NCBI GenBank assembly: GCA_965661765.1 | Contig: CBFIFE010000008.1 | Coordinates: 5,737-69,736, forward strand | Direction of reading: 5' to 3' | Length of the DNA stretch: 64,000 nucleotides | Origin: an uncultured Flavobacteriales bacterium | GTDB lineage: Bacteria > Bacteroidota > Bacteroidia > Flavobacteriales_D > Sanyastnellaceae | Shown: positions 24,749-62,614 of the stretch, piece after piece | Layout: each line of letters begins with the position of its first letter | How positions within the stretch are numbered: position 1 is the stretch's first letter | Position numbers and translations under genes: made by a program | The notes under the pieces: generated by a model | Told to the model about the DNA's origin: nothing | The model's database searches: none | What the model saw: only the letters and a program-made list of their open reading frames with translations

Positions 24749-24785
24749 GGTGGCGAGGCGTTCCATGAGAAGCGCCTCGCCCACC
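24749..24785 (+). terminator. Hairpin (12-bp stem with one bulge) downstream of the TBDR/lipoprotein genes
   Basis: GGTGGCGAGGCG-ttccatgagaag-CGCCTCGC(C)CACC. It runs directly into repeat array 1. No U-tract. Confidence 0.4.
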
Positions 24786-24893
24786 TAGTTCCCTAGTCAC
24801 CTTAGTCCCCTTAGTCCCCCTAGTTCCCTAGTCCCCCTGGTTCCCTAGTCACCCTCGTCACCCTAGTCTCCCTAGTCTCCCTAGTCTCCCTGG
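24783..24893. repeat. C3-tract/CTAG 8-9-nt tandem array 1 (13 units)
   Basis: Units CCCTAGTYY / CCTTAGTCC / CCCTGGTTC / CCCTCGTCA. TAG at 24786, 24794, 24803, 24812, 24821, 24829, 24846, 24864, 24873 and 24882. The array ends directly at the icd stop (24894-24896). Confidence 0.9.
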
Positions 24894-27122
<2,229 letters not shown>

Positions 27123-38210: not shown

Positions 38211-38332
38211 GTTTCAGAGATTTTGTAGGTGTTTGACTCTTTTGGCCAAAGGAATCACAACCTTGTATCAAAAAATCGGCATTTTGTGCTTTGTCATGTG
38301 CACTTTGTGACTTTTCGTGTACTTTGGACATC

Positions 38333-39259
38333 ATGCCAATGAAGCACCGCTTGTCTCCCGTCTCCTTGACCCCTTCCACGGCCTTGCCCACCCTCGTGGA
38401 GCACCGCCGCATCGTGGACATGGAGACCTGTCAGCTGAATGTATTTGAAACCCATGCGGCCGCAAGCCGCGTGCATTTGCAATTTGACAACCTTCTGCTG
38501 ACCAGCATGATGCGCGGGAAGAAGGTCATGCACTTGCCGGATCGGCCTGCGTTCGATTACTTGCCGGGTGAATCTGTTTTGGTCCGTCCGCAGGAAAAAA
38601 TGATCATCGATTTCCCAGACGCATCCTTTGATGAGCCCACCCAATGCATCGCGTTGGCCATCAGCGCTGATGCTGTGCGCGGCACACTGGACATGCTCAA
38701 CGAAAACTACCCTCGCATCGGGCAAACCGAACAATGGGGCCTGGATGATGAGTTTGTTCACCTCCAAAATGACCAAGCCACAGCCGCCACCATTGAACGG
38801 ATGGTGTACCTCGGCATGTTTGAACAAGGCAAACACAAGGACATCCTTGCGAGCCTGGCCTTGCAAGAGCTCCTCGTGCGTTTGATGCAAGGCTCCGCGC
38901 GCTCTCTATTTGCCCGCGATTTTCGGCAACTCTCTGCCTCTCACCCGCTTGCGGCGGTAATGACTTACATTGAGGACCACCTCACCGAATCCCTCGAAGT
39001 CACAAAACTCGCGTCCATTGCGTGCATGAGCCGGGCCCACTTTCAACGAAAGTTCAAGGAGGCCTTCGGATGGACCCCCAAGGAATACGTGACCCGCGCC
39101 CGGATCGAAATGGCGAAGAAGCAATTGGCCACGCCGCATGCCTGCGTGCAAGAAGTGGCTTATGCTTGTGGTTTCAACGGCCCGAACCCCTTCATCCGCG
39201 CCTTTCGCCTCGCGGAGGGCATCACGCCCAAGCAATACGCGAGACAATTCGCAGCTTGA
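38333..39259 (+). CDS. AraC family transcriptional regulator
   Basis: C-terminal double HTH: LASIACMSRAHFQRKFKEAFGWTPKEYVTRARIEMAKKQL...VAYACGFNGPNPFIRAFRLAEGITPKQY. Divergent from the aldehyde dehydrogenase. Confidence 0.85.
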   Translation: MPMKHRLSPVSLTPSTALPTLVEHRRIVDMETCQLNVFETHAAASRVHLQFDNLLLTSMMRGKKVMHLPDRPAFDYLPGESVLVRPQEKMIIDFPDASFDEPTQCIALAISADAVRGTLDMLNENYPRIGQTEQWGLDDEFVHLQNDQATAATIERMVYLGMFEQGKHKDILASLALQELLVRLMQGSARSLFARDFRQLSASHPLAAVMTYIEDHLTESLEVTKLASIACMSRAHFQRKFKEAFGWTPKEYVTRARIEMAKKQLATPHACVQEVAYACGFNGPNPFIRAFRLAEGITPKQYARQFAA

Positions 39260-39275: not shown

Positions 39276-39869
39276 ATGTCCGAAGAAGTTTTCGATCAGA
39301 CGTTCGCCCATTGGCACCAAGTCTGCGCTCACCCCTCGGGCACGCGGTTTGATTCCTGCCGTTTCACGGGTTGGGGCTTGCCAGCAGACCCTTCTGAACG
39401 TCGACCCTTTCGGTTCTCTGGTTTCCGTTTCGAAGAATGCACCTTCACAGATTGCGACCTCAGCAACGTCGACGTTCGCAATGCCGCATTTCGGTCGGTC
39501 AAATTTGTCGGTTGCAAATTGCAAGGAATCCGGTGGGACGCTGCGGCCCCCATGGGCTTTGCGTGCGAGTGGCGGCAGTGCAATTTGAATTTCAGCGTGT
39601 TTGAGGGCGTGGACTTGAGGTACAGTCGATTCGTGGATGCCGAGGTGAAAGAAGCGGACTTCAGCCGATCCTTATGCCAGTCTCTCCGCTTTGAAAATTG
39701 CGTCCTTTCTGGGGCGGTTTGGACGGCTTCGGATTGCACGGATGCCGACTTTTCTGCGTCCGAAGGCATCACCATGGACCCCGATGAGGTGCGACTTGGC
39801 GGGGCCCATTTTCGGCAGGATCAACTCCATGGCCTTTTGGTGAAACACGGCATCCAAATCGTCCCTTAG
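39276..39869 (+). CDS. Pentapeptide-repeat protein
   Basis: Runs of A(D/N)LXX-type pentapeptides (FEECTFTDCDLSNVDVRNAAFRSVKFVGCKLQGIRW..., NLNFSVFEGVDLRYSRFVDAEVKEADFSRS). ATG at 39276. The stop TAG lies inside repeat array 2. Confidence 0.75.
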   Translation: MSEEVFDQTFAHWHQVCAHPSGTRFDSCRFTGWGLPADPSERRPFRFSGFRFEECTFTDCDLSNVDVRNAAFRSVKFVGCKLQGIRWDAAAPMGFACEWRQCNLNFSVFEGVDLRYSRFVDAEVKEADFSRSLCQSLRFENCVLSGAVWTASDCTDADFSASEGITMDPDEVRLGGAHFRQDQLHGLLVKHGIQIVP

Positions 39870-39918
39870 TCCCCCTAGTCTCCCTAGTCTCCCTAGTCTC
39901 CCTAGTCCCCCTAGTTCC
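39864..39918. repeat. C3-tract/CTAG 9-nt tandem array 2 (6 units)
   Basis: CCCTTAGTC CCCCTAGTC TCCCTAGTC TCCCTAGTC TCCCTAGTC CCCCTAGTT CC, with TAG exactly every 9 nt (39867...39912). Confidence 0.9.
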
Positions 39919-40549
39919 TCATCCATCCCGTCACACTCATCCGATCTTTGTGTGAACGCAAAACCTCGTGTTCAATCTCCGCACTTGGGAACATGACAGT
40001 CCGACCAAAAACCGGCTCAACAGTCACCGGCAAATCATCCTCCCCGTAAATGATCAACTCCCCGCCATGCTTCGGCTGCCATCCCACATTCAAATAGGTG
40101 ATCAACGAGAAGAGGCGGGCATTTTTGTTCTGGAAATCGTCAATGTGCCTCGCATAGCGAGCGCCAGGTGGGTAAATGGCGAAATGGAACTCTCGGTTCC
40201 GAATCCCGGCAAAGCACGTGCGATTCAGGTAGGCCGACAACGCGTCGATTCGGTCGAGATAGGCCTGCTGGTGCGGATCTGTCGGCGCATCGGGCCACCA
40301 AGCAATGAGGTCCGATCGAATGTCCCGGTGGATGGTGGCGCGGTCCGAGCCACCAATGGCGGCTTGGCGCAAGGATTCGGCGGCCGACAGCGCCTTGAGT
40401 TGCTGGCAAAGTGCCGACAACATCGGGGGGGGCCAGAGGTCGTCGATGACGGCCCAGTTTTGGCCCAAAATCTGCTGCACCATGCGCTCGAAACGCGCTT
40501 CAATTTGCACCATGATCGCGATGTCTAGAATTTCGCAACGTTCGCCCAT
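39911..40549 (-). CDS. 2OG-Fe(II) oxygenase (prolyl 4-hydroxylase-like)
   Basis: YARHIDDF (HxD), LITYLNVGW, GGELIIY, RTVMFPSAEIEHEV (distal His). The ATG at 40513 is an alternative start. The stop is supplied by repeat array 2. Confidence 0.8.
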   Translation of the reverse strand: MGERCEILDIAIMVQIEARFERMVQQILGQNWAVIDDLWPPPMLSALCQQLKALSAAESLRQAAIGGSDRATIHRDIRSDLIAWWPDAPTDPHQQAYLDRIDALSAYLNRTCFAGIRNREFHFAIYPPGARYARHIDDFQNKNARLFSLITYLNVGWQPKHGGELIIYGEDDLPVTVEPVFGRTVMFPSAEIEHEVLRSHKDRMSVTGWMRN

Positions 40550-51332: not shown

Positions 51333-52592
51333 ATGGGAATTTTTCTGAGCCTTTTCGGCATGGCCGTCCTGATCGGGGGCGGCTGGTTGCTTTCATCTGA
51401 CCGGAAATCCATCGTTTGGCGCACCGTTCTCGGTGCCTTCGCCATCCAATTCGCCTTTGGGGCCTTCGTGCTGTACGTGCCTTGGGGCAAGCGGGTGTTG
51501 CAGACAATGTCTGATGCTGTCAACCGTGTGGTGCAATATGGACAGGATGGCATTGACTTCATGTTTGGTGCACTGGCTTCAGACCAAATGGGCCAGGTCT
51601 TCTCCGGTGGCGGCTTCGTCTTTGCTTTTCAGGTTCTGCCCATCATCATCTTTTTTTCCGCCCTCATTTCCGTCCTCTACTACATCGGCGTGATGCAGTG
51701 GGTCATTCAAATCCTCGGCGGCGGGCTGCGCATGCTCCTGGGCACCTCACGAGCGGAATCGATGTCTGCGACGGCCAACATTTTTGTCGGTCAGACCGAG
51801 GCACCACTTGTGGTGAAGCCGTTCATCGCTGGGATGACCAAATCTGAGCTCTTCGCCATCATGGTCGGTGGCCTGGCATCGGTCGCGGGGTCGGTCCTGG
51901 TCGGTTACGCCTCTCTCGGGGTCCCCGTGCCTTACCTGATTGCTGCCTCTTTCATGGCGGCCCCGGGCGGCCTCCTTTTCGCCAAGCTCATCAAGCCCGA
52001 AGTCGAAACACCCCGTGAGGACCTCACCTTGACCAGCGATGAAGCGGACGACGAGGCACCGGTCAATGTCATTGACGCCGCTGCGAAGGGCGCGGCATCT
52101 GGTGTTCAGCTGGCCTTCAATGTCGGTGCAATGCTTTTGGCCTTCGTCGGCATCATCGCCTTGATGAATGGAATGATTGGCGGAATCGGCGGTTGGTTCG
52201 GGCAGGACAATTGGTCCCTCGAAGGCGGACTGGGCTATCTGTTCGCTCCGGTGGCCTTCCTCATCGGCGTGCCTTGGTCAGAGGCCACCATTGCGGGCTC
52301 CTTCATCGGCCAGAAGTTCATCGTCAATGAGTTCGTGGCCTACCTGAATTTCTCACCTTATCTCGCTGAAGACGCTTCGGTCGTGTTGTCGGAAAAAACG
52401 AAGGCCATCATTTCGTTCGCCCTTTGCGGCTTTGCAAACCTTTCCTCCATCGCCATCCTCCTTGGGGGCATCGGTTCTTTGGCCCCTTCTCGCAGAAGTG
52501 AAATCGCCCGTTTCGGCATGCTCGCTGTGGTCGCTGCCACCCTCTCCAACCTCATGTCGGCGACCATCGCCGGTTTCTTTCTCAGCTTATGA
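51333..52592 (+). CDS. nupC: NupC/NupG-family concentrative nucleoside transporter
   Basis: 419 aa, multi-TM, with typical CNT blocks ([48 protein letters not shown]). Confidence 0.9.
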
Positions 52593-53875
52593 TGGCATCC
52601 TCCCGCAAGTTGCTTCCAGTGGAAGTCATTCGGCGCAAGCGCGATGGCCTCGTGCTCTCCGCCGAAGCCATCGGCCAATTCATCGATGGCGTGGTCTCCG
52701 GGGACGTCACCGACGCTCAAATCGCTGCCTTTTCGATGGCCACCTATTTTCAGGGACTCGACCCCACAGAGCGCACCGCCATCACGCGCGCCATGGCGCT
52801 GTCGGGCCGGTCGCTTCAATGGGACGCTGAGCGCCTCGGTGGTCCGGTGCTGGACAAGCACTCCACAGGCGGCGTGGGCGACGCGGTCTCCCTGATTCTC
52901 GCCCCCTTGCTCGCCGCCGTCGGCGGTTTCGTCCCCATGATTGCCGGTCGTGGCCTCGCGCACACGGGGGGCACCATTGACAAGTTGGAGGCCATCCCTG
53001 GCTACAATGTGGCGATTGATTTGGCATCTTTCCAAGCCATTGTTGCCCGGCATGGTTTCGCCATCTGCGGCCAAACCGCCGATCTCGCTCCCGCCGATGC
53101 CCGCATGTACGCCACCCGGGATGTCACTGCGACCGTCGAACAAAATGGCCTCATCACCGCCTCAATTCTCTCCAAAAAGCTCGCCGCGGGACTTGGGTTT
53201 TTGCTCATGGACATCAAGACGGGTTCTGGTGCCTTCATGCGAACGCGTGCTGAAGCTGAGTCGCTCGCTGAGGTCATCTGCGCGGTGGGCAACGCCGCTG
53301 GCATGAAGACCGAAGCGATGATCACGCCGATGGAGGAACCGCTGGCCGATTCGGCAGGCAATGCCTTGGAGGTCCGGGAGGCAGTCCAAATCTTGCGCGG
53401 CGAACGCACCGACGGCCCGCTTTTGGACGTGACGCTCTCCCTGGCCGAGCGGATGTGCCGGCAATCGGGACTGGACCCCGCGGCCCTTCAAGCGGCATTG
53501 ACCTCCGGTGCGGCACTGGAGCGGTTTGCCCGCGTTGTCCATGCCATGGGTGGTCCGTCCGACTTCGCTGACAATCTCGACGCCTACCTGCCTCAGGCCC
53601 CCATTGTTCGGGCTGTCCATGCGCCGGTGGGTGCCGAAGGCGTCGTCACAGGGATGGATACCCGAGAATTGGGCCTGGCGGTGGTGGATTTGGGAGGGGG
53701 CAGGAAGCGAACAGGTGACCCCATCGACACCCGCGTGGGCTGCCTTGATTGGGCACGGGCGGGTGATCCAACGAGCCGGCACCTGGCGGTGTTGCATGCC
53801 GCGGACGAAGCCAGTTTTGAACTCGCTGCCGCTCGCATTCAATCGGCCTACCGCTTCACCCCCTGGTCCCCCTAG
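52589..53875 (+). CDS. deoA: Thymidine (pyrimidine-nucleoside) phosphorylase
   Basis: [38 protein letters not shown] overlap with nupC. The stop TAG lies inside repeat array 3. Confidence 0.92.
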
Positions 53876-53938
53876 TTCCCTAGTCCCCCTAGTCTCCCTA
53901 GTATCCCTAGTCCCCCTAGTCCCCCTAGTCCCTCGTTC
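53861..53938. repeat. C3-tract/CTAG 8-9-nt tandem array 3 (9 units, 7 CTAG)
   Basis: CCCTGGTCC CCCTAGTT CCCTAGTCC CCCTAGTCT CCCTAGTAT CCCTAGTCC CCCTAGTCC CCCTAGTCC CTCGTTC, followed directly by the ATG at 53939. Confidence 0.9.
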
Positions 53939-61448: not shown

Positions 61449-61587
61449 GAGGGGGGCGCTCGGCTTCGCCTCGCTTGGGGTCGCGCCATCGGCGCTCGGG
61501 GGGCAAAAGGTTGTCGGTACAGAACAAAAATTCCGGCTTCGCCTCGACAAATCCGGACCTTCATGGTCGTTGTGAATCGTTCAAGAT

Positions 61588-61752
61588 CCTTGGTTCCCTT
61601 GGTTCCCTGGTCACCCTGGTTCCCTAGTCCCCTTGGTTCCCTGGTCCCCTTGGTTCCCTAGTCCCCTTGGTTCCCTGGTCCCCCTGGTTCCCTAGTCCCC
61701 TTGGTTCCCTAGTCCCCCTGGTCACCCTGGTCACCCTAGTCCCCCTAGTTCC
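61588..61752. repeat. C3-tract/CT(A/G)G 8-9-nt tandem array 4 (19 units, 6 CTAG)
   Basis: CCTTGGTTC / CCCTGGTCA / CCCTAGTCC units with a higher-order period of about 34 nt. The last unit, CCCCCTAGTTCC, supplies the stop of the minus-strand gene (61745-61747). Confidence 0.9.
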
Positions 61753-62614
61753 ATTGGTTCAAATCGATTTCGAAAACGTTGCCATTGTGGTGGACCTCGG
61801 CGATTGCATCGCACTCCCCGGAGCCAAAATCGATGACCACATTGTGCATCGGGCGATTGATGGTGATGGTACCTGCCACCAGGTAGCCGCATTCACCGTT
61901 CCAAGTCAGCCCCTCGACGATGCGCGATGTGCCATTGCCCTGTGGGCCCGTCCACGTCGCTTGAAAGTTGCGGACCCAAATGTCATCGCTGCAATCCATG
62001 GGCGTGCCATGCCCTGCGACCCAATCCCTCGTACCGCCTCCTGACTGGACAACGCTGCCCCAACCGTGCGAGAAAGTCATGTTGTGGGCCGTTTGGAACG
62101 TGGGTTGGCCGTTTGCATCGACTTCGGCAACGGAACGCGAACGTGTGCCATTGATCGTGCGGTTGCCGCGTTGCAGGTTCGAGTGGGTCACCGAGCGGCT
62201 GTCCCCGATGGCCAAAATGGAGTCGCCGCCCAAGATTTCGATCGTCATTGCGCCACCCAGGGCTTGACCTGAAGGGCCCGTACACCCATCGGCGAACGCG
62301 ATGTGGATGGTGCGTGGGTCCGAGTCGGATCCGGAGTCGGTCACTTCGGCGCAGGCGGGCCATGCCCAATCGTTGTTGGGCGCGCCAAATGGGTTGAAGG
62401 GGCCTTCGAAACAACCGTTCGGGTGAATGCTTCGGACCTCCAGGACCTCGCTGAGCTCCTCGGAGGCCAGCGCCTGCATCTCTCGCTCGACACGGGTTTC
62501 GGCAATTGCCGAGGCGCTTTCGTCGTTTTCGGTGTTTTGATTGCAGCTGGTGAACGCGGCGGTGCCGAGAAGGAGGATGGCCCAAGTGCGGGCCGGGGCA
62601 TTGAAAATAGTCAT
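61745..62614 (-). CDS. Hypothetical lipoprotein
   Basis: Lipobox LLLGTAAFTSC. No family recognised. No competing ORF with coding-like composition. Confidence 0.55.
   Translation of the reverse strand: MTIFNAPARTWAILLLGTAAFTSCNQNTENDESASAIAETRVEREMQALASEELSEVLEVRSIHPNGCFEGPFNPFGAPNNDWAWPACAEVTDSGSDSDPRTIHIAFADGCTGPSGQALGGAMTIEILGGDSILAIGDSRSVTHSNLQRGNRTINGTRSRSVAEVDANGQPTFQTAHNMTFSHGWGSVVQSGGGTRDWVAGHGTPMDCSDDIWVRNFQATWTGPQGNGTSRIVEGLTWNGECGYLVAGTITINRPMHNVVIDFGSGECDAIAEVHHNGNVFEIDLNQWN

Follow-up and report, generated by a model that had tools for sequence, protein, structure and literature searches.

Tandem arrays of a short stop-bearing repeat at gene 3' ends in a Flavobacteriales genome, with a probable account of one array that terminates two convergent genes

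Background

The enterobacterial REP and BIME elements are concentrated in 3' untranslated regions (UTRs) and in the spacers between convergent genes, and have been proposed to act as mRNA stabilisers or as transcription terminators. REPs, which have a RAYT transposase as partner, are hairpin-forming imperfect palindromes. Here we analyse a tandem array of short repeats that lies between two convergent genes, one for a pentapeptide-repeat protein and one for a 2OG-Fe(II) oxygenase, in a 64,000-nucleotide stretch of DNA (the window) from an uncultured Flavobacteriales bacterium (contig CBFIFE010000008.1, positions 5,737 to 69,736). Positions given without a contig name are those of the window, and the features under study are collected in Table 1.

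Two described classes of repeat are the closest to it. G-rich intergenic simple sequence repeats (SSRs) prone to form quadruplexes, GGGAATC in Xanthomonas and GGGGA(C/T)T in Nostoc and Anabaena, are given as of unknown function by Rehm et al. 2015 (PMC4692102); in that account, repeats located 3' of open reading frames (ORFs) are on the coding strand, 0-50 bp from the stop or overlapping it, and those located 5' of ORFs are on the non-coding strand. TAACTGA direct repeats occur in marine Beggiatoaceae, cyanobacteria and some Bacteroidetes, and some sets of them overlap the end of the upstream ORF and supply it (MacGregor 2015, PMC4679880); that author argued that stop-bearing repeats enter coding sequence only at its periphery.

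Results and discussion

One array supplies the stops of two convergent genes

We interpret the array as a copy of a species-specific, slippage-prone SSR family, with a unit of 8 to 9 nt, that colonises the 3' ends of genes, and the ladder of in-frame stop codons within it as incidental. On the evidence set out below this is the probable explanation, although we hold it with some reserve.

The six units follow one another in the order CCCTTAGTC, CCCCTAGTC, three copies of TCCCTAGTC, and CCCCTAGTT; the program TRF calls the array at 39862-39915 with period 9, 5.9 copies and a score of 85. An earlier note on this DNA had described TAG triplets spaced at exactly 9 nt, and every position proved correct on checking (39867, 39876, 39885, 39894, 39903 and 39912). 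The first of them (39867-39869) is, as that note had it, the stop of the pentapeptide gene, while CTA at 39911-39913, a minus-strand TAG in unit 6, is the stop of the oxygenase gene, and the 41 nt between the two stops (39870-39910) are array throughout. The six minus-strand stops, five TAG and one TAA (from TTA at 39866), likewise share a single frame. That the stops fall in one frame on each strand is arithmetic, a consequence of the 9-nt period and of the palindromic CTAG, and is no independent observation.

Chance does not account for the repeats: the window has 20 copies of CCCTAGTC where 0.34 are expected, and none of 100 shuffles reached 20. We called 2,188 ORFs in the genome with a heuristic of our own based on codon-usage log-likelihoods. 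TAG is the rarest stop codon among them (173 ORFs, 8%), so that two facing TAG stops would arise by chance at about 0.6%. A single array, of one orientation, giving both stops was found in only two of the 37 array-bearing convergent spacers, namely at this locus and at C49:4050-4110.

A repeat family found in one species

The genome (G000; 2.79 Mb, 56.7% G+C, 123 contigs) was scanned for arrays, defined as three or more units of CC[CT][TC][AGC]GT. It contains 198 of them, with 1,434 units in total, up to 28 per array and a median of 6. The unit reads NCCCT(A/G/C)GTY, or GAC(T/C/G)AGGGN on the other strand, and the spacing between units is 9 nt in 917 cases, 8 nt in 236 (19%) and 10 nt in 56. 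CTAG is scarce in the genome as a whole, and 574 of its 1,084 occurrences, over half, lie in CCCTAGTC or GACTAGGG. Contig ends fall within 250 nt of an array in 38 of 246 cases; the arrays fragment the assembly, being collapsed or shortened in short-read data, and our counts of their number and length are therefore underestimates.

The three-unit CCCTAGTC pattern is absent from all 40 relatives searched, among them a genome of the same genus (G001). In the 2.51 Mb fetched for this congener, CCCTAGTC does not occur and GACTAGGG occurs twice, and none of its five arrays with a period of 7-10 and at least four copies belongs to the NCCCT(A/G/C)GTY family.

The arrays are mainly intergenic, with 184 of the 198 outside called ORFs, and several of the remaining 14 probably reflect miscalled N-termini. 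Stop-free arrays (CCAGG, CGAGG, CCAAG) lie in long ORFs at C9:31356-31392, C14:14641-14767, C36:27596-27954 and C43:1683-1721. The putative translations of arrays within ORFs are of low complexity, for example EPGNEGTKEPG or GPGGPGEPG. A coding origin, as a collagen-like G-X-Y sequence, was rejected because units of 8 and 10 nt are frequent and units carry stops, while the few arrays inside ORFs are stop-free.

Profiles of the flanks of 174 arrays (30 nt per side) revealed no conservation, only decaying degenerate units. Between inverted pairs of arrays we found no recurrent ORF or common core but only a few pairwise similarities, and no RAYT search was made.

The genome has two genes for C5-cytosine DNA methyltransferases (PF00145; C21:37046-37972 and C61:10172-11440), and no Vsr (PF03852) was found in it. 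The main unit variants, CCAGG, CTAGG, CCAAG and CTAAG, are linked by the transitions expected from deamination of 5-methylcytosine at CCWGG. Against deamination, CCAGG outside arrays is barely depleted (observed/expected 0.90, with 0.84 in the congener), and the GAG-core units (198; CGAGG) do not fit.

The ladder is confined to one allele

The copy number of the array is hypervariable among strains. The two genes are also found, with 98% protein identity, on contigs of seven other metagenomes (L001-L007). In these strains the spacer measures either 31 nt, with 4 or 5 units, or 67 nt, with 9, and includes some 8-nt units, against 41 nt and 6 units here. Both boundary stops are fixed across strains: the left boundary reads GTC-CC(C/T)-TAG and the right CTA-(T/G)TT-CCT-CAT, ending the oxygenase in MRK or MRN. 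The stops between them are not. The pentapeptide frame contains all six TAGs here, compared to one of four or three of eight elsewhere, and the minus-strand stops in the oxygenase frame number six of six here and four of five or six of nine elsewhere. The 8-nt units break the ladder in every other strain recovered; because it is lost in strains 98% identical to this one, it is a property of this single allele.

These results bear on an adaptive reading, in which the ladder is a set of in-frame backup stops kept against read-through on both strands. Here the TAGs and the minus-strand stops, six of each, are indeed all in frame with their genes, and genome-wide the stops beside arrays have moved from the leaky TGA to TAA or TAG (see below). 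However, the five further in-frame stops that each gene has here are not maintained among near-identical strains, which largely refutes the idea; one array rarely serves both genes; roughly half of all units are of the stop-free types CTGG, CTCG and TTGG; and a palindromic stop leaves the strand bias of the arrays, described below, unexplained. We consider this reading exceedingly improbable. Much the same evidence tells against the suggestion that arrays are tolerated only where they terminate translation on both strands: such arrays are found in two of 37 spacers, the strand rule goes beyond the palindromic CTAG, and stop-free variants exist within ORFs.

The array also fails as a phase-variation SSR. 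Alleles with 4, 5, 6 and 9 units leave both proteins unchanged apart from a K/N difference at the oxygenase end; both stops sit in boundary units. This last residue is encoded by AAC (Asn, CTAGTT) here and by AAA (Lys, CTATTT) in the seven other strains, so that the right boundary unit (39911-39916) is nearer to the array consensus in this strain.

More distant relatives (68% identity in the oxygenase, 57% in the pentapeptide protein) keep the convergent pair, with spacers of 113-216 nt made of other simple repeats. At 57-68% identity (L008-L012) the repeats in the same spacer are of other types, among them three copies of TTCCCCAG, GGCTTTAGG-like units and CCCTCGTT units, and within each half the G-rich strand is sense for the gene that this half follows. 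Judging from these spacers, repeats of changing unit sequence have occupied one and the same convergent position.

Arrays abut stop codons

Array-bearing spacers (n = 85) are convergent in 37 cases, tandem in 44 and divergent in 4, where all spacers of the genome number 386, 1,338 and 342, respectively. The null model for position let each array block take any place within its spacer with equal probability. Array sides that face a stop lie within 3 nt of it in 59 of 118 cases, compared to 25.8 expected (standard deviation 3.3), and where at least 40 nt of free room was available 21 of 56 such sides are flush with the stop, compared to 2.0 expected. At starts there is no enrichment (1 of 32 start-facing sides flush, 1.0 expected), and array flanks face stops far more often than starts (243 versus 79). 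The genome-wide survey of array edges that the earlier note had named as a check on any link between arrays and stops thus comes out in favour of the link.

Arrays have replaced stop codons and C-terminal residues

Sixty-one genes have their stop codon inside an array: 29 end in TAG, 17 in TAA and 15 in TGA. Stop usage in the whole genome is TGA 1,627 (74%), TAA 388 (18%) and TAG 173 (8%); 29 of the TAG stops are in an array and 14 more lie no more than 30 nt from one. Comparison with G001 by tblastn gave 1,566 orthologue pairs, including 50 genes with in-array stops and 1,470 controls. The G001 orthologues of these 50 genes have a normal mix of stops (TGA 38, TAA 7, TAG 5), while the same genes in our genome end in TAG (20), TAA (17) or TGA (13). 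Changes from TGA to another stop outnumber the reverse by 28 to 3 (p=4.6e-6), compared to 175 and 177 among controls.

The protein ends have changed as well. C-terminal length is equal in 18 of the 50 genes (36%) but in 952 of the 1,470 controls (65%; Fisher p=6.6e-5), and differences of at least 3 residues, in both directions, affect 18 of 50 genes and 241 of 1,470 controls (p=9e-4). AAC or GAC is the final sense codon of 40% of genes with in-array stops, 12% of their G001 orthologues and 6% of controls. For example, a protein ending ..VYQGN (GGG-AAC-TAG) corresponds to ..VYQAD (GCG-GAT-TGA) in the congener, another ending ..GYAWN corresponds to ..YAWGLTSSAHQP, and a third ends ..GREYVGDQV where the congener has ..GREYV. 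These differences in stop, last codon and length indicate that arrays replaced native stops.

Genes meet their arrays in a few registers (hyphens mark the codon boundaries). In T[GA]A-CYAGGG the unit's first three bases serve as the stop (27 genes); in [GA]AC-TAR-GG it lies in mid-unit and the last residue is N or D (30 genes, the oxygenase included); and a rarer type in which the C-rich strand is sense, CC(C/T)-TAG-TY, accounts for 8 genes, among them the pentapeptide gene. The shift in stop usage extends to genes with an array 0-30 nt downstream, in which TGA became TAA or TAG 22 times and the reverse occurred twice. In this class the shift is seen even where, as is often the case, the protein is identical to that of G001 up to its last residue (VKFIIR, VIDNRL and EVLLGL are such ends). 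Inside arrays GGGTAAC occurs once and GGGTGAC 339 times, yet 26 array-abutting stops (our registers i and iii) are TAA; because GGGTAAC is so rare, these TAA stops cannot derive from units.

At the locus itself we examined orthologues from metagenomes and from GTDB in place of G001, which has no match to the oxygenase gene and none to the pentapeptide gene that passes our orthologue filter (at least 45% identity and at least 60% coverage). The last codon (CCT) and the stop (TAG) of the pentapeptide gene both lie within array unit 1. Its protein nevertheless ends in one alignment column in all orthologues (..IQIVP here; ..LVVGQ, ..IIV-Q and ..IKV-D elsewhere), and the stop is at the same codon position in relatives of 31-57% identity, being TAG in those of 57% and TAA in those of 31-41%. 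The last codon of the oxygenase gene, AAC (Asn), is array-derived. Oxygenase orthologues in metagenome-assembled genomes (MAGs) of 51-57% identity (L015-L017) have no array and no downstream repeats and end in GWLR followed by TAA or TGA, while those of the repeat-bearing clade end in GWLRK[DN]-TAG (68% identity) or GWMR[KN]-TAG, where [DN]-TAG-GG matches the repeat unit (GAC/AAC TAG GG). As far as such alignments can tell, the effect of the array on the two proteins is trivial, amounting to no residue in one and one extra residue in the other. The idea that their C-termini had been truncated or extended at this locus finds no support, apart from the single residue that the oxygenase has beyond the array-less GWLR.

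Could the arrays merely adjoin native TAG stops by coincidence and leave the genes unaltered? The pentapeptide gene would fit, since it stops at the ancestral codon, and TAG is also its stop in relatives of 57% identity whose pentapeptide side has other types of repeat; and more than a third of genes with in-array stops, as noted above, keep their C-terminal length. Genome-wide, though, this account is contradicted by the 38 of 50 congener orthologues that end in TGA where 37 of the 50 genes here have TAG or TAA, and by the frequency of AAC or GAC as last codon; array-less oxygenase orthologues terminate one codon sooner and with another stop, and the gene at 61745, considered below, has a rewritten tail. 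We regard coincidence as very unlikely. Of the proposal in the earlier note that arrays now define the ends of ORFs, the part that stands is the genome-wide one, namely the enrichment at stops and the replacement of stops and last codons; the ladder and a change of length at this locus do not.

Other arrays and genes of the window

Table 1. Arrays and flanking genes in the window
Feature	Position	Strand	Remarks
Six-unit tandem array, 9-nt unit	39863..39916	+ (C-rich)	Direct reading of the letters
Pentapeptide-repeat protein gene	39276..39869	+	Pfam Pentapeptide_4, 1.9e-17; 197 aa
2OG-Fe(II) oxygenase gene	39911..40549	-	Pfam 2OG-FeII_Oxy_3, 2.9e-20; JGI label "SM-20-related"; 212 aa
Sister array, ~12-13 units	24784..24895	+	Ends at icd stop; hairpin on far side
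Sister array after deoA	53859..53932	+	deoA = 52589-53875
Longest array of the window, ~19 units	61587..61760	+	Gives end codons and TAG of minus-strand gene 61745-62614

The earlier note had drawn a parallel with the minus-strand gene at 61745, and the parallel is correct: the gene ends TTG AAC CAA TGG AAC TAG GGGG (LNQWN and stop), with AAC-CAA-TGG-AAC-TAG itself unit-like. Orthologues of 57-60% identity end in ..LETHE(I/L)(S/N)PI, four residues beyond the ..EIDLNQWN found here. By this comparison the effect on the gene, a loss of four residues and a rewritten tail, is stronger than that on the two genes at 39863-39916. Alignment of orthologous C-termini thus leaves the two proteins of the main locus essentially unchanged and reveals a shortened, rewritten one at 61745. 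In another species (L101:2392-2480) the orthologue of this gene has a TGA stop followed directly by seven GGGAACTA units and then by a hairpin-plus-T-run terminator, which places the array within the 3' UTR.

The icd gene (minus strand, 24894-27110) has a TAA stop that abuts its array (TAA-CCAGGG) and is one residue longer than its G001 orthologue, which ends in TGA. The deoA ORF passes through one CTGG unit and ends at the TAG of the next; compared with G001 its length is equal, its last six residues are unalignable and its stop is TAG instead of TAA.

The pentapeptide gene probably starts at the ATG at 39276; this reading, of 197 aa, has the support of homologues, including a 98%-identical metagenomic protein of 197 aa. 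The longest ORF begins at 39138 and overlaps an AraC-family gene (38291-39259). The nearest named relatives of the oxygenase are MAGs of Flavobacteriales and Bacteroidota.

A probable route to the present locus

On the SSR interpretation that we favour, an array can overwrite the native stop of a gene and often its last one or two codons, since it lies flush with the coding sequence and its units carry stop triplets. The C-rich strand offers TAG in one frame, and the G-rich strand TAG, plus TGA at GGGTGAC junctions; termination would stay at or near the original site, at little cost. We infer that arrays reach stops by gain and loss of units combined with deletions that erode unconstrained flanks, perhaps helped by microhomology between TGA-C or TAG-G and the unit, and that they persist at 3' ends as the places where they do least harm. 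At this locus the convergent spacer would have shrunk to pure array, with the result that one array ends both genes. The pentapeptide gene would have retained its ancestral length (CCT-TAG), and the oxygenase would have gained one residue (AGG-AAC-TAG, compared to Arg followed by TAA or TGA in array-less orthologues). The ladder is a by-product of the six consecutive 9-nt units that happen in this strain to surround the palindrome CTAG, and it is not maintained.

Array orientation and a possible role at 3' ends

The arrays obey an orientation rule. Of 68 arrays in convergent spacers, 62 have their G-rich strand in the sense of the nearer gene. Among the 116 stop-proximal arrays, 99 have a G-rich strand that, read 5' to 3', leads away from the nearest gene, as do 17 of the 22 start-proximal ones (116 of 138 overall), and the G-rich strand is sense in 54 of the 61 genes with in-array stops. 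At our locus it is sense for the oxygenase gene, while the pentapeptide gene, with the C-rich strand as sense, has the minority orientation. Neighbouring arrays of opposite orientation are G-rich and then C-rich on the plus strand in 25 of 25 cases, and a transcript crossing such a pair could fold both arrays into one long hairpin. Since this order is fixed within spacers that hold both orientations, replication-strand effects are excluded as the cause.

The rule invites the view that arrays are functional 3'-end modules. The G-rich tail of an mRNA could fold into an RNA G-quadruplex, a block to exonucleases or a pause site for polymerase, and C-rich RNA from convergent or antisense transcription could load Rho, with the unit-borne stops keeping that RNA free of ribosomes; here the array would serve the oxygenase gene and act on transcripts arriving from the pentapeptide gene. 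Besides the orientation counts and the invariant order of inverted neighbours, several features agree with such a role. The oxygenase-sense strand has seven tracts of three or more G, six of them spaced at 9 nt within the array; this strand fits the canonical G4 motif, G3+N1-7 x4, and the minimum-energy fold by ViennaRNA contains a predicted quadruplex (-13.0 kcal/mol with the G4 term, -11.3 without). No hairpin terminator lies in the 41-nt spacer, and, in a difference that is suggestive only, hairpin-plus-T-run sites are found in 19% of array spacers compared to 32%. At icd and in the one relative mentioned above, the order is stop, array, terminator hairpin, so that the array falls in the 3' UTR. 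Finally, in Xanthomonas, Rehm et al. 2015 (PMC4692102) saw a raised frequency of transcript starts or stops at G4-forming repeats.

Other observations argue against a 3'-end function. The same-genus genome does without arrays, near-identical strains have anywhere from 4 to 9 units, 17 of the 116 stop-proximal arrays violate the orientation rule, the pentapeptide gene sees the C-rich strand, we found neither conserved flanks nor a partner gene, and the closest known class of repeats has no known function. On balance we consider the functional view unlikely, though it is the strongest of the alternatives.

More specific versions of a transcriptional role were rejected. A rut-like role of C-rich RNA for a gene's own transcript is ruled out for most arrays by the sense orientation of the G-rich strand. 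Nor are the arrays hairpin terminators: between 39200 and 40700 the one hairpin-plus-T-run site that we found is weak and unrelated (39238-39253), and genome-wide such sites are somewhat fewer, not more numerous, in array spacers. The C-rich strand folds at -5.6 kcal/mol and the G-rich strand at -11.3 kcal/mol, with pairing through CUAG:CUAG only (ViennaRNA), and the array lacks the G+C-rich stem-loop followed by a T run of an intrinsic bidirectional terminator.

A further account would treat the arrays as a satellite that is aware of gene boundaries, docks on stops, rewrites 3' ends and is kept in a fixed polarity because it insulates gene ends. Docking may proceed by microhomology (T[GA]A-CYAGGG or [GA]AC-TAG-GG); the G-rich tail may resist decay or pause polymerase, while ribosome-free, C-rich antisense RNA may load Rho and halt convergent or antisense transcription; and the shift from TGA to TAA or TAG may be a co-adaptation of translation termination to the structured tail. 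We think this decidedly unlikely.

Several points weigh against the interpretation that we prefer, that of incidental SSR colonisation. A neutral model alone leaves the orientation rule (99/116, 17/22 and 25/25) unexplained, and likewise the excess of TAA at array-abutting stops, and both hint at selection or a directional mechanism; the TAA excess could possibly reflect a mutation bias specific to array edges, or selection for a stronger stop where a structured G-rich tail follows. Relatives of 57-68% identity have TAG-bearing repeats in this very spacer, so that the TAG of the pentapeptide gene may predate the present array. The genome-wide polarity of change was derived from a single congener, with genes called heuristically.

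Whatever their cause, the arrays have practical consequences. Within genus-level divergence, about 3% of genes have had their stops, and often their final residues too, rewritten by a fast-evolving SSR family, whose contribution to C-terminal protein evolution and to bias in stop usage can thus be measured. Arrays break assemblies and can mislead the annotation of gene ends. Together with its array-free congener, this genome forms a clean pair for testing the 3'-end function of such repeats.

Comparison with known repeat systems

The arrays differ from REP and BIME elements in that their units are non-palindromic beyond CTAG and fold weakly (-5.6 kcal/mol on the C-rich strand). They resemble the heptamers of the cyanobacterial short tandemly repeated repetitive (STRR) class in being dispersed tandem arrays of short units directly after stops, and differ from them in unit length and sequence.

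With the TAACTGA repeats they share an abundance of short direct repeats that carry stop codons, some of which end upstream ORFs. TAACTGA repeats, however, have 7-nt units in 2-6 copies, no G or C tracts and forward stops in three frames. The arrays described here do not stop all three forward frames: the C-rich strand has stops in one of three, and the G-rich strand has TAG, with TGA only if N is T, so that one frame of it is always open. TAACTGA repeats also lie mostly just 5' of starts, in contrast to the preference for stops, and chance occurrence at starts, found here.

The closest likeness is to the class of Rehm et al. 2015 (PMC4692102). Both consist of short tandem units with a tract of three or more G, in hundreds of arrays per genome that are mostly intergenic, and in both the G-rich strand leaves the nearest gene (here in 99/116 and 17/22 arrays, the oxygenase conforming and the pentapeptide gene not). 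The units differ: ours has 8-9 nt, a CTAG or CCAG core and stops (TAG on both strands, TGA on the G-rich one), whereas the heptamers GGGAATC and GGGGA(C/T)T, by our own check of their sequences, have no stop triplet on the G-rich strand. The Xanthomonas repeats prefer four units and occupy conserved locations, while the arrays here vary in unit number and are missing from the congener. Replacement of stops and C-termini, quantified here, was not found for the repeats of Rehm et al. in the parts of that publication used here. In other words, the G-rich intergenic class of repeat is known; what is new is a stop-bearing 8-9-nt unit with a CTAG or CCAG core in Bacteroidota and its quantified effect on stops and C-termini, and the rule that the G-rich strand leaves the nearest gene now extends to this phylum.

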